Shown: piece by piece, positions 14 to 28,747 of the stretch | Layout: each line of letters starts with the position of its first letter | Position numbering within the stretch: position 1 is the stretch's first letter | From: Candidatus Saccharimonadota bacterium | Lineage (GTDB): Bacteria; Patescibacteriota; Saccharimonadia; Saccharimonadales; Saccharimonadaceae | Direction of reading: 5' to 3' | Length of the DNA: 45,381 bases | Assembly (NCBI GenBank): GCA_013332965.2 | Contig: JABCPR020000048.1 | Location: 1 to 45,381, forward strand | Made by a program: the position numbers and the translations under genes | Notes under the pieces: model-generated | The model's input: only the letters and a program-made list of their open reading frames with translations | Databases searched by the model: none | What the model was told of the DNA's origin: nothing

Positions 14-36
14 AAAAAAGACCTTTTGGGTCTTTT
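14..36 (-). terminator. Intrinsic terminator closing the tRNA-Ala/minihelix transcript
   Basis: Minus strand reads AAAAGACC-CAAAA-GGTCTTTTTT: hairpin plus U-tract. Confidence 0.7.
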
Positions 37-38
37 GT

Positions 39-74
39 TGGTGGAGTATCTAGCGGGGGGACGCTAAATACCCC
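39..74 (-). ncRNA. Candidate tRNA-Ala minihelix (acceptor-stem mimic)
   Basis: Minus strand GGGGTATTTAGCG-TCCCCC-CGCTAGATACTCC-ACCA: 13-bp stem with G3:U pair, A discriminator and CCA end. Confidence 0.5.
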
Positions 75-96
75 ATGGCTGATTTTATCAGAAAAA

Positions 97-173
97 TGGT
101 GGAGTAACAGGGATTCAAACCCTGGACCTCTGCCTTGCAAAGGCAGCGCTCTAATCAGCTGAGCTATTACCCC
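97..173 (-). tRNA. tRNA-Ala (TGC)
   Basis: GGGGTAA/TTACTCC acceptor stem with G3:U70, anticodon arm CTGCC-TT-TGC-AA-GGCAG, encoded CCA. Confidence 0.95.
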
Positions 174-182
174 AGTGGAATT

Positions 183-211
183 ATATTAGCAAAGAATAAG
201 TTTAATGTCAA
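183..211 (-). promoter_or_regulatory. sigma70 promoter for tRNA-Ala
   Basis: Minus strand TTGACA-17 nt-TAATAT with extended TGn. Confidence 0.75.
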
Positions 212-1261: not shown

Positions 1262-1756
1262 TTAGATTAAATCGCAATGGGGGCAATACCAGGTTTGGTT
1301 TTTATCCTGAAACATGGTAAGGCCGCATTTTTTGCAAGTAGTTTTTTGGTGGAGCCAACGACGGTAGGTATCAAGATGAGCTTCGGCAAAATCTTGGTTG
1401 AAAATTAGGTGATATTTTGTTTGTAGATTAGGGTGATTCTCGAGAATTGTTTGGGCCGCATGCCAGGCTTCGGTTTCGATCTTGATACGATCGATGGAAA
1501 GCTGAAAGTTACGATGGCCAGAAATGGCATGACCTAGTTCGTGGAGTAGTTGGAGGGCAAAATCTTGAAAGGAATTGTTTGTATCATTTGGGTTACTAGG
1601 CTCGTAAAAAATAGTGTTTGGCGGGCGGAAGAGGAAGCGGGGGCCGGGTTGAAAGCAAAAATTAGGATAGAGGGATTTTAGGTCAGCAAGAAAATTGGAG
1701 AACGGGCTGTTTGATGACTGTTTTTTTATTTGATTAGAAGAATTTGCCTGACTCAT
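1262..1756 (-). CDS. Hypothetical protein with HExxH motif and C-terminal zinc ribbon
   Basis: LLHELGH...E motif and CKKC...CPHC; start moved to the ATG at 1756, 7 nt after a TATAAT box. Confidence 0.7.
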   Translation of the reverse strand: MSQANSSNQIKKQSSNSPFSNFLADLKSLYPNFCFQPGPRFLFRPPNTIFYEPSNPNDTNNSFQDFALQLLHELGHAISGHRNFQLSIDRIKIETEAWHAAQTILENHPNLQTKYHLIFNQDFAEAHLDTYRRWLHQKTTCKKCGLTMFQDKNQTWYCPHCDLI

Positions 1757-1860
1757 TAAAAATATTATAGGTGGAGGTGGAAAAAATAAAAAGAATAAGA
1801 GGGAAGAGATGTGGGCAGAGAATGTAAGAGATGGATGGTAAGTGAGCCATAGACACACGC

Positions 1861-26079: not shown

Positions 26080-26466
26080 ATGATGGAAGATAAAACACAG
26101 AATCCTGACCTAACTTCATTAGGTGAAGCCCTAGATGAAGCTAGTCTTGCAGGAATGTCGCAAGATCAATTAATTGGTCTATTTGTTGACGAATTAATTA
26201 ACGAGAAAGGAGTTGAGGCTTCTGAACTTGAAAGAGATAGAATCGCAGAAAGACTTAAGGATGCGGTTATGACAGAGATTTTGATGAATATGCCGGATTA
26301 TCTTGTAAACAGGATTAATGAGAGCTTTGATAATGGTACTGCGTCAGATGCTTTATTTGATGAGGCGGTTGAAGAATCTGGAATCGATGCAAATAAGATT
26401 GCAGAAAAAGTTATGATTAAGTTTAGGGATGATTATTTAAACGGTAAAATTGGAGAGGAAAAATAA
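26080..26466 (+). CDS. Acidic helical hypothetical protein (possibly DUF5663-related)
   Basis: 128-aa ORF; promoter TTGACT-17-TATTAT at 25995-26023. Confidence 0.75.
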   Translation: MMEDKTQNPDLTSLGEALDEASLAGMSQDQLIGLFVDELINEKGVEASELERDRIAERLKDAVMTEILMNMPDYLVNRINESFDNGTASDALFDEAVEESGIDANKIAEKVMIKFRDDYLNGKIGEEK

Positions 26467-26467
26467 T

Positions 26468-28747
26468 ATGGGAAATCCTGAAAATAGGGGCGGAAATGCA
26501 TTAAATAGTGATGGTGGAAGAAACGATGCTTTTGATGCATGGAATAAGGTGTTAGCTTCTAAAGCTTCTTGGGAAGAAAGGGCCAAGCAGATAGCTGAGG
26601 AGGTAAAAGGGGTGTCTTCTTGGAGAAATGCTGGAGGCTATGAGCCTGGTTATAAATCTGAATGGACGGATACAGCTACTGATAAAACAAATGATAAGGC
26701 GGATAACGTTAATCGTGTCGATAATGCTAGTATTGCTAGTGAGCCAGCAAAAAACGAATATACTTACCATATTAATCCAGAAGATGTTCGAGGTGTTGAT
26801 CCGGAATTAGTAGTGGATATTAATGGTATTCTTAAAAACATGAATCAGGATAAGGACAAAAGTGCAGAAAAAAGTCCTAACGAAGATAAATCTTCTGTAG
26901 TGAATACTACTGAAAAAAATGGCAATAATAAAAATGGGGTTGATACAAAAAAAGATAGCGTAGATAGTGTTAAAACACCGGATGATGGAAACTTCGCAAA
27001 TAAGGAGCAGATAGAGAAAGAAGTTACAAAGAATTGGAAGAGTCTAAAAAGATACGAAGAGGCTTCGGCATTAAATTCTGAAAATCTTGAAAAGAAACGT
27101 GGTTTGGTAGCTGGCATCCTCGAAAAGATTAAAACTTCTGGTTTCGGAAAGAGGGTTGCGATTAGGGCGATTATTACTGTTCTTACTGGAATGACTTTGT
27201 TTCCGATTTTTAATCCAGGCGCGAGAGCAAAAAAAGGTAATATGGCTCTTAATAATCAAACCGCAATTGAGTCTACCCAGGATACGCTTGATGTGGCAGA
27301 AGATAATCAGAACGTATTAGATGAAACAAATGCTGAAAAAACTGATGGCATGATTGAGGTGACTACTGAGTCTGGTGATAAACTCATGGTCGACGGGACT
27401 CTTAGAGGATCAAATAATTTTAATAACTTCTTCGATACTGCCAATAAAAGGAGTAAGCAGGCCTTAACTACTCGTGACGGGCGATTAGCTAATGAACGTG
27501 AGGTTTATGCAGAAGCTGAATCTGATCCTGCAAAAAGGGATGAATACACTAAGATAGGTATTGAGAGCTTAAATAATACAAGACTAGAAATTCCAAAGCT
27601 GTCACTTGACCTATATGTATTGGGTTATTTTGGTGAGAATACGCTTTCTGATGAAGAGCTTGAACAAAAGAGTTTTGAGTTGACTCAAAATCCTGATGCA
27701 TATAAAAACGCGTGTGAGTGGCGAAAGAATTTTGAGAACGAAAAACGTGAAAAGGGCTTTAAGTATAAGCTTGATTTTACAGATGGGGACTTTCTATCAC
27801 AGTATGCAAGGACATTTAAGGACAAGAATGGCGTTGATCATGTAATGGTTAAGGGCGATAGTTTTGTGGACAACGAAACTGGTAGATTGCTTCTTGTCGA
27901 GGTAAATGATCAAGGGGTGCCTTTGTTAGAATTGCCGGAATACTTCTCGGCGAAAAAACGAGGATTGGAGCGATCTGGGGTTAGCTTTGCTGGCCTAAAT
28001 GAGCAGCAAATTAGGGCTAAGGTTAATGGTTATAAGTATAAAGGCGAGGAACTTGGATGCGATCAGCTATGTTTTGAACGAATACCAAATAAACATCCAG
28101 ATGATTTTACGAAGACCCCTGAAGATCACAGCACTCCTGAGGATTCTTCAACGCATAACTATATAACTCCAACTCCTAATAAGGAACCTGTGCCAGTCCC
28201 TACACCTGAACCAGAGCCAGAGCCACAAACTCCAGGTGAAAATACAGTTACTCCAAATAATAATCCACAGAATAATCCAAATGATAATCCAGGTGATAAA
28301 CCAGGTAACAAACCAAATAATAACCCAAATGACAACCCAGGTGATAATCCTGGTGGAAAGACTGTGGAACTAGAAGGTAAGACTGATCATGTTGGTGTAG
28401 ACTTTGATCAAAATGATAATGAGGCTACTGGTACTGAAACTGATCAGAATAGGTCAGTTGCGATAAAGGACGAAGGAGAGAATATTATTCTCGAAAATGG
28501 GGCTGGCGACGTCGAAGAAAACGGTCAAGCATTTGCTGAACAGGCAGGAAACGAGTATAAGGCAACCATCGGAGACAAGAGCGAGGACAATGAAAGAACA
28601 GTCGAAGTTGGGGATGTAGATACTGATAGCAGAACAACTGTAGAGGCAGCTCAGACATTTGAAAACGATGATCATACCGTGAATGAGAAGGCAGACGAAG
28701 ATTCAAATGGATTTGAAAATTTCACGTACGAAAATCTATTTAATTAA
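26468..28747 (+). CDS. Large acidic hypothetical protein with internal hydrophobic helix and Pro/Asn repeats
   Basis: ~759 aa from ATG 26468 with GAGGA RBS; VAIRAIITVLTGMTLFPIF segment; PEPEPEP and NNNPNDNPGD repeats. Confidence 0.85.
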   Translation: MGNPENRGGNALNSDGGRNDAFDAWNKVLASKASWEERAKQIAEEVKGVSSWRNAGGYEPGYKSEWTDTATDKTNDKADNVNRVDNASIASEPAKNEYTYHINPEDVRGVDPELVVDINGILKNMNQDKDKSAEKSPNEDKSSVVNTTEKNGNNKNGVDTKKDSVDSVKTPDDGNFANKEQIEKEVTKNWKSLKRYEEASALNSENLEKKRGLVAGILEKIKTSGFGKRVAIRAIITVLTGMTLFPIFNPGARAKKGNMALNNQTAIESTQDTLDVAEDNQNVLDETNAEKTDGMIEVTTESGDKLMVDGTLRGSNNFNNFFDTANKRSKQALTTRDGRLANEREVYAEAESDPAKRDEYTKIGIESLNNTRLEIPKLSLDLYVLGYFGENTLSDEELEQKSFELTQNPDAYKNACEWRKNFENEKREKGFKYKLDFTDGDFLSQYARTFKDKNGVDHVMVKGDSFVDNETGRLLLVEVNDQGVPLLELPEYFSAKKRGLERSGVSFAGLNEQQIRAKVNGYKYKGEELGCDQLCFERIPNKHPDDFTKTPEDHSTPEDSSTHNYITPTPNKEPVPVPTPEPEPEPQTPGENTVTPNNNPQNNPNDNPGDKPGNKPNNNPNDNPGDNPGGKTVELEGKTDHVGVDFDQNDNEATGTETDQNRSVAIKDEGENIILENGAGDVEENGQAFAEQAGNEYKATIGDKSEDNERTVEVGDVDTDSRTTVEAAQTFENDDHTVNEKADEDSNGFENFTYENLFN
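28170..28355 (+). repeat. Coding Pro/Asn-rich tandem repeats
   Basis: TPEPEPEPQTP and 4-aa NP/KP units. Confidence 0.7.

Follow-up and report, generated by a model that had tools for sequence, protein, structure and literature searches.

Here we describe a 36-nucleotide (nt) RNA gene encoded downstream of tRNA-Ala in a member of the Saccharibacteria (Candidatus Saccharimonadota; order Saccharimonadales, family Saccharimonadaceae). The gene lies at positions 74..39, on the minus strand, of contig JABCPR020000048.1 (assembly GCA_013332965.2), the 45,381-nt stretch of DNA that was analyzed as a whole and is denoted here the window. Its product, GGGGTATTTAGCGTCCCCCCGCTAGATACTCCACCA, is a tRNA-Ala minihelix, that is, a tRNA-Ala acceptor arm extended by a stacked short helix and devoid of a D arm, an anticodon arm and a true T loop. 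We consider it very likely that the minihelix gene is genuine and under selection, and that its RNA has the identity of an alanine acceptor. As for its function, we favor, with moderate confidence and from comparative sequence analysis, a role in feeding alanine to a Fem-type transferase of the cell envelope.

The 36-mer folds into 13 uninterrupted base pairs (bp), a 6-nt loop and a free ACCA end, with a minimum free energy of -19.9 kcal/mol and 95% of the ensemble in the hairpin structure; none of 200 dinucleotide shuffles was as stable (z = -6.3). Sequence and fold together yield the acceptor elements G1:C72, G2:C71, G3:U70 and A73, followed by an encoded CCA. Pairs 1 to 6 are identical to those of the acceptor stem of the adjacent tRNA-Ala, and pair 7 is U:A in place of the A:U of the tRNA. 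The hairpin itself is not an intrinsic terminator: its 3' neighbor is ACCA, and a distinct terminator comes only after that, at 36..16. The features of the unit, in the direction of transcription, are as follows.

183..211, minus strand: candidate sigma-70-type promoter of the tRNA-Ala/minihelix transcript, with -35 TTGACA, a 17-nt spacer and a TG-extended -10 TAATAT (consensus scan only, 10/12 matches)
97..173, minus strand: tRNA-Ala(UGC) with encoded CCA (ARAGORN; Rfam RF00005, 68.3 bits)
75..96, minus strand: 22-nt spacer, presumed RNase P leader, with CAU abutting G1 and U at -1 (from the sequence)
62..74, minus strand: 5' arm of the minihelix, positions 1-13, including G1, G2, G3 and G4 (fold and covariation)
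56..61, minus strand: C-rich hexaloop UCCCCC, typical of the genus (fold)
43..55, minus strand: 3' arm of the minihelix, including U70, C71 and C72 (fold and covariation)
39..42, minus strand: discriminator A73 and encoded CCA 3' end (from the sequence)
16..36, minus strand: predicted intrinsic terminator of the tRNA-Ala/minihelix unit, an 8-pair stem followed by a T-run

The strongest evidence that the helix is under selection comes from related copies. In alignment A1, which consists of 27 distinct copies from the window's genus, 91.1% of the cells are paired, compared to 77.6% in shuffles, and there are 57 double-sided changes compared to 19.6, a number reached in none of 500 shuffles; slid registers of the same alignment show only 47-55% pairing. 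Alignment A3, comprising 56 distinct copies from the genus and the order, gives 89.5% against 68.7% pairing and 150 against 48 double-sided changes, again with 0/500 shuffles reaching the observed value. Four pair types occur at 5:68 and six at 6:67, the range over 5:68 to 8:65 being 4-6. At the level of the order, the stem sequences are almost unrelated and the architecture is constant. A third alignment, A2, was left unused, as the covariance model from which it derived (R1, the first to be built) matched whole tRNA-Ala genes as large insertions.

Positions 5-13 vary freely, whereas G3:U70 and ACCA are constant in 56/56 distinct copies, with the reservation that, in A1 and A3, the search motifs themselves account for part of the invariance of pairs 1-4 and of ACCA. 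A metagenome scan in which positions 3, 70 and 73 were left free returned at least 117 loci; among the matches listed, all 16 well-formed hairpins, which are closely related copies, have G, U and A at these positions, and the rest are GC-rich non-hairpins. No G3:C70 variant was found with an A3-based covariance model in 151 genomes of the order. Six extra hairpin or mini-cloverleaf copies detected with the model (L392, L397, L389, L390, L391 and L393) keep G3:U70 and ACCA, as does the second copy of L201, which was recovered in a looser scan; one extra model-found copy has G4:U69 in addition. The loops are variable, with UCCCCC(C) dominant in the genus, and UUCG, GNRA, CUUACG and others found elsewhere. 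Because the loops are not conserved, the acceptor helix appears to be the business end of the molecule. The initial annotation of this locus thus holds up well: the hairpin elements, their coordinates, the spacer and the terminator are all present as it described them (by sequence, fold and terminator scan); its suggestion, made from the seventh pair, that the pairing is maintained is borne out by the covariation in A1 and A3; and the covarying hairpin with G3:U70 and ACCA that it proposed to look for in relatives does exist there. In the copies examined, loss of the G:U pair or of CCA, which it had named as a ground for doubt, was not seen.

In three genomes, the minihelix is replaced by a mini-cloverleaf of 63-66 nt, which has a 7-8-bp alanine acceptor stem (with G3:U70) and ACCA, three short arms with 3-4-nt loops, and no anticodon loop.

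L447, 5248-5310, plus strand: mini-cloverleaf beside the MurF-like/FemAB operon described below
L448, 1116-1178, plus strand: mini-cloverleaf beside the MurF-like/FemAB operon
L393 (G480 C69, 6484-6546), minus strand: mini-cloverleaf beside the MurF-like/FemAB operon

The same 240-nt locus is found in two relatives at 98-99% identity, and near-identical or identical copies occur in Candidatus Nanosyncoccus, Candidatus Saccharibacteria and TM7 oral taxon 351; diverged minihelix copies are spread across the window's genus (Candidatus Nanosyncoccus, TM7 G3) and the order Saccharimonadales. The genomes nearest to the window are 0.6-1.0 Mb in size. The motif GGGGT-N(14-40)-ACTCCACCA had matches in 111 of the 369 genus genomes (by our own count, 14 for the reversed control pattern); the matches other than true hairpins are apparent protein-coding sequence or 3' halves of tRNA-Ala. 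Another motif class, GGGGTAGTTTCG...CGACTCCACCA, was first read as tmRNA 3' ends and was dropped, its flanks looking protein-coding. In a draw of 401 genomes of the order, the motif ATGGGG-N(16-36)-CTCCACCA matched 62 genomes, 40 of which contain real minihelices (38 confirmed by folding and 2 by eye). A scan for the C-loop form across one genome per prokaryote species gave 114 loci, of which 56 were judged to be minihelices, and 43/43 of the judged minihelices that carry a title belong to Saccharibacteria; in a draw of 401 genomes of the phylum, minihelices were detected in only 4 genomes, all from the window's own family. The apparent matches outside the order were ruled out: none of the 30 folded loci has a 12-13-bp helix, and the three best of these matches lie within open reading frames (ORFs) of 283-565 amino acids (aa), on the opposite strand. 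Within what was searched, the minihelix family is confined to Saccharimonadales. The draws include one unpublished genome (G402), on which no claim depends.

Standard annotation passes over these genes. ARAGORN reports only two true tRNAs in the window and does not call the minihelix, and no Rfam tRNA match was obtained at 39-74 even at E<=10; neither minihelices nor mini-cloverleaves are called by ARAGORN or Rfam, and no Rfam family matches them. Because tRNA finders and Rfam miss minihelix genes, these are currently unannotated. When the element is set against the known RNA classes, it lacks the D, anticodon and T arms of a cloverleaf, being a single 13-bp hairpin, and has the acceptor end of tRNA-Ala (G3:U70, A73 and 3' CCA). 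Its makeup is that of a tRNA-Ala minihelix, namely, a continuous helix of about 12 bp with a small loop and a single-stranded NCCA; in the homologues, the helix comprises 12-14 bp and is in some cases interrupted by a single mismatch or bulge. The minihelix, at only 36 nt, does not have the tag ORF, pseudoknots and ~350-nt length of tmRNA. Replacement of tmRNA was ruled out as well, given that tmRNA was detected in 5/5 (66-80 bits) and SmpB in 4/5 genus genomes. A conserved mini-ORF starting from the ATG that overlaps G1 was also rejected, because the frame lengths differ and, in one copy, a stop follows the second codon. The full-text literature searched, which covered papers open without subscription, yielded no account of a naturally occurring minihelix gene or of Saccharibacterial Fem enzymes. 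In the accessible part of a 2023 review of tRNA identity, minihelices figure as synthetic models only (PMC9976931).

Minihelix genes occur in two settings. Clustered copies are located on the same strand as tRNAs, either 0-43 nt downstream of tRNA-Ala or tRNA-Ile or a short distance ahead of such a gene; in many relatives, a terminator comparable to that at 36..16 comes after the minihelix. Standalone copies are equipped with a terminator of their own and with an extended -10 box, TGnTAnnAT, whose end is ~10-11 nt upstream of G1. Immediately upstream of G1, (C/T)AT is found in 27/27 distinct genus copies, and A-2 is constant in 56/56 copies, of which 20 order-level copies came from a pattern requiring AT before G1. 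In some genomes, the copy resides in the rRNA operon, in the order 16S, tRNA-Ala(UGC), minihelix, tRNA-Ile(GAU), 23S. A diverged second minihelix in the rRNA spacer was observed in L077 (G019 C45, 1-736) and L038 (G053 C16), and the genome of the window probably has a second minihelix gene, too, because G019, which is 99% identical at this locus, has the rRNA-spacer copy. In L474 (G560 C1, 523500-534500), tRNA-Ala, minihelix and tRNA-Ile lie between 16S and 23S, on the opposite strand. The genome nearest to the window, G001, encodes a type A RNase P RNA (196 bits), and no PolyA_pol/CCA-adding enzyme domain was detected in it at 95% completeness, which fits the strict encoding of CCA in the minihelices. 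All tRNA genes seen at the examined loci likewise encode CCA. One further tRNA-like gene with an alanine-type acceptor stem (L400; G427 C11, 23838-23915, minus strand) was reported by ARAGORN with a four-base anticodon (agtc), without an amino acid being assigned to it.

The proposed function follows from the link between minihelices and FemAB. FemAB (PF02388) is encoded in 160 genomes of the order draw, namely, in 36 of the 40 minihelix genomes compared to 124 of the 361 others (Fisher's exact p = 5.6e-12, a value that is overstated since relatives are non-independent), and many standalone minihelices are located about 3 kb from a FemAB gene. We fetched 14 loci, 12 with a hairpin and 2 with a mini-cloverleaf, because a FemAB gene shared the contig with the RNA. 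In 14/14 of these loci, the RNA is at the head of an operon with the following genes.

Gene 1: MurF-like ligase, ~426 aa (116 bits, compared to the 288-bit murF cut-off)
Gene 2: α/β-hydrolase (ABH), ~230 aa
Gene 3: DegT/DnrJ/EryC1 aminotransferase, ~396 aa
Gene 4: FemAB protein, ~341 aa
Gene 5: PgdA-like polysaccharide deacetylase

The RNA lies 37-178 nt from the first gene of the operon in 13 of the 14 loci, two extra ORFs intervening in the remaining one (G428); a 13th hairpin case, G512, has one extra ORF between the minihelix and the operon. The operon-linked total comes to 13 standalone hairpins and 2 mini-cloverleaves, from 9 GTDB families. The RNA is co-directional with the operon in some loci and divergent in others. 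An orthologous operon is present in G001, where the MurF-like protein shares 41% identity with its G389 counterpart, along with a DegT::FemAB fusion and a second FemAB. The fusion, located within the envelope operon, is a 743-aa frame (L452, 6089-8320, minus strand; G001 C20) that joins a DegT-type aminotransferase to FemAB, which are encoded by separate genes in other genomes.

Some minihelices have other neighbors. In G656 (C10; L471, 1026-3007, minus strand), the minihelix is located directly downstream of alaS, co-oriented with it and followed by a terminator, and the two are probably co-transcribed. In G543 and its genus, the minihelix directly precedes murF-ddl. In the FemAB-negative G757 (C1; L467, 2987-5386), a standalone minihelix is located 48 nt beyond the stop codon of an MprF-like gene of 772 aa (LPG_synthase_C, E 4.9e-70). 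These alaS, MprF-like and murF-ddl neighbors, each from a single case or a single genus, point the same way as the Fem link. In L470 (4751-6346; G392 C34), a standalone minihelix is flanked by a PgeF/YfiH-like gene (Cu-oxidase_4) and by ksgA; PgeF-type proteins edit peptidoglycan precursors in which a wrong residue replaces L-Ala.

The AlaRS of the genus is encoded by a single gene of ~626-663 aa (G023, G001, G043, G003 and G012; 636 aa in G023, L434, 1036-2946, minus strand) and ends after the editing domain (tRNA_SAD), without the C-Ala/DHHA1 domain. The C-Ala domain binds the tRNA elbow. We envisage that a single transcript, initiated at the upstream promoter, contains both tRNA-Ala(UGC) and the minihelix, as suggested by the promoter/terminator layout. 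RNase P would then cut after the conserved U-1, as it does in tRNAs, which is consistent with the presence of RNase P RNA and the lack of a detected CCA-adding enzyme in the nearest genome, and ACCA would become the 3' end through trimming or through RNase P cleavage of a following tRNA. Next, the AlaRS devoid of C-Ala would charge the minihelix through G3:U70 and A73; the invariant identity elements and the published work on synthetic minihelices argue for this step. In the accessible part of that work, an AlaRS-FemX(Wv) coupled assay works with synthetic Ala minihelices, with a 24-nt microhelix and even with a duplex, C71 and C72 (critical) being read by FemX and G3:U70 by AlaRS (PMC2175331). 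Because it has no anticodon arm, the minihelix cannot decode, and once alanylated, it could serve as a dedicated alanyl donor; gene neighborhood and co-occurrence suggest the FemAB/FemX-like transferase of the conserved envelope operon as the recipient enzyme. A broader proposition, which we regard as evenly poised between acceptance and rejection, is that Saccharimonadales possess a class of anticodon-less alanine carriers (~36-nt minihelices and 63-66-nt mini-cloverleaves) that mature like tRNAs, are charged by AlaRS lacking C-Ala and are reserved for envelope alanylation by FemX-like or, in some lineages, MprF-like enzymes.

The idea that alanine is donated by a Fem-type route outside translation had been put forward in the initial annotation, and it gains support from the covarying family, the fixed identity set, the adjacency to the FemAB operon in 9 families and the enrichment of FemAB. 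Several observations weigh against this role, however. Within the genus, the Fem homologues that were to be sought do not discriminate, as FemAB is encoded in 5/5 of the genomes that carry the minihelix and equally in 5/5 of the non-carriers; in the latter five genomes, no minihelix was detectable with the covariance model; given the FemAB-positive non-carriers, the minihelix is dispensable for Fem function in the genus, and would be at most an accessory donor there. The genus minihelices are not adjacent to the Fem operon and are patchily distributed, with true hairpin copies in about 65 of the 369 genus genomes (strict motif, hand tally). Across the order, 4 of the 40 minihelix genomes have no detectable FemAB, and two of these are near-complete (G530, 99%, and G757, 98%). 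The best NCBIfam match of the operon FemAB is the FemX alanyltransferase, at 61 bits, compared to the 500-bit cut-off. In small genomes, synteny can persist without a functional link. No minihelix was found near the 12 other MprF-like loci, the adjacency in G757 being a single case. To these points, the partly motif-imposed invariance of the acceptor positions mentioned above has to be added.

Among the alternatives to Fem-type donation, the one that survives best, unlikely as we judge it, is a regulator or decoy. The minihelix would bind AlaRS, and perhaps be charged by it, or would bind EF-Tu, RNase P or a tRNA-targeting toxin, titrating its target or sensing, for example, the alanine supply, with no donation involved. 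The conserved AlaRS identity elements fit such a role, and so do the co-oriented copy directly downstream of alaS in G656 and the patchy genus distribution, as expected of an accessory modulator; over-expressed synthetic minihelices reportedly inhibit the growth of E. coli. However, a pure decoy explains neither why the minihelix is linked to the FemAB operon in 9 families nor why it co-occurs with FemAB. Moreover, G1:C72 and G2:C71, the pairs read by FemX according to the accessible part of the source (PMC2175331), are invariant as well, although this is largely imposed by the search motifs.

A slightly less probable alternative holds that the hairpin is RNase P punctuation, in other words, a mere cleavage site that frees the tRNA 3' trailer from the terminator or separates tRNAs or rRNAs, leaving a fragment without a role of its own. 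Bacterial RNase P prefers U at -1 and a 3' RCCA. The minihelix has both, and RNase P RNA is encoded as well. In the window, as in many relatives, the hairpin follows the final tRNA and precedes the terminator, or else is flanked by tRNAs, the next of which may be only 0-1 nt away; some copies are in the rRNA spacer. Nevertheless, many standalone copies have their own promoter and terminator, with no tRNA nearby. Furthermore, although RNase P has no need of G3:U70, a wobble pair that is easily lost, each of the 56 distinct copies and every model-found copy retains it. Punctuation also leaves unexplained both the adjacency to the Fem operon and the enrichment of FemAB genomes.

Lower still in our estimate stands an alanyl donor for some other acceptor, which could be MprF-like aminoacyl-lipid synthesis or the ribosome, with the charged minihelix acting as a puromycin-like A-site substrate that releases stalled peptides. 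Lipid alanylation had been suggested at the outset, and the FemAB-negative G757, with its MprF-like gene, provides one anecdotal neighbor in its favor, as do, in more general terms, the 4 of the 40 minihelix genomes without FemAB. In the window's genus, this part of the suggestion does not stand: LPG_synthase_C (PF09924) was detected in 0/5 genus genomes and 0/5 family genomes, which, together with the 12 MprF-like loci that have no minihelix nearby, rules out MprF-type lipid alanylation as the general partner for the genus. The ribosomal variant has no support in the data, and the standard rescue system, as noted above, is in place (tmRNA in 5/5 and SmpB in 4/5 genomes).

It is very improbable that the minihelix is a functionless, decaying duplicate of tRNA-Ala, an att-site scar or an assembly artefact: it does adjoin tRNA-Ala, the first six acceptor pairs being common to both, and some loops resemble a shrunken T loop (GGTTCGCC), which fits an origin from tRNA-Ala by internal deletion, but the same sequence recurs in independent assemblies (G001, G019 and others), the family is order-wide and shows compensatory changes, both the 5' and the 3' acceptor strands are present, unlike in an att duplication, and no integrase or phage domains were detected among the 37 window proteins scanned, so that the scar and artefact scenarios raised in the initial annotation are ruled out by covariation and distribution.

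The 45-kb surroundings of the unit are ordinary chromosome, encoding S1, Suf, PriA, RecJ, FtsA/Z, IleRS, ParAB, RelA/SpoT, a PBP, MraY, FtsW, MurG and IF2. Two ORFs of the window, one of 765 aa (26450-28747, plus strand) and one of 198 aa (1262-1858, minus strand), have no Pfam match at E<=1e-5.

For more than 30 years, tRNA minihelices have served as constructs in the laboratory and figured as a hypothetical tRNA ancestor. A conserved, genome-encoded alanine minihelix, if the present interpretation is correct, would be evidence that present-day cells employ the acceptor-stem code by itself, a living "operational code" without an anticodon, and would be the RNA counterpart of a carrier protein. 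It would also uncouple the demand of the cell wall for alanine from translation, a new split solution in genomes of ~0.6-1.0 Mb. In addition, the minihelix points to an uncharacterized envelope pathway of Saccharibacteria that includes a MurF-like ligase, a DegT aminotransferase, FemAB and a deacetylase; the surface chemistry of these epibionts is central to their parasitic lifestyle.

The closest known counterpart is the synthetic tRNA-Ala minihelix, an acceptor-TΨC stem-loop that has served as a model AlaRS substrate since 1989 and, later, as a FemX substrate; its use as an AlaRS substrate is said to go back to Francklyn and Schimmel in 1989. The two share a helix of ~12-13 bp, a small loop, G1:C72, G2:C71, G3:U70, A73, the single-stranded CCA and the lack of an anticodon. 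However, the synthetic minihelix is a laboratory construct charged in vitro, whereas the Saccharimonadales minihelix is genome-encoded, conserved and covarying; also, the loop of the latter is not a T loop (UCCCCC in the genus; UUCG, GNRA and other tetraloops elsewhere). Like the tRNA-like domain of tmRNA, which is charged by AlaRS, the minihelix has alanine identity (G3:U70 and ACCA) and no anticodon, but tmRNA is ~350 nt long, has a tag reading frame and acts with SmpB as a partner, whereas the minihelix has no coding part.

The proposed logic resembles that of the non-proteogenic tRNA-Gly species of S. aureus, which, in the accessible part of the source, are separate carriers for the Fem enzymes FmhB, FemA and FemB, reserved for aminoacyl transfer and not competing with translation (PMC7826273). 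Those tRNA-Gly species, however, are full-length, have an anticodon, escape EF-Tu via changes in the T arm and are recognized through the D and T arms; the minihelix has none of these arms, carries alanine identity, and its link to Fem enzymes comes from gene neighborhood and co-occurrence rather than from biochemistry. Finally, the armless or hairpin-like mitochondrial tRNAs of nematodes and mites are, similarly, extremely reduced tRNA-derived RNAs. According to the accessible part of the source, these keep the anticodon arm and still decode (PMC12221289), whereas the minihelix retains the acceptor end only.

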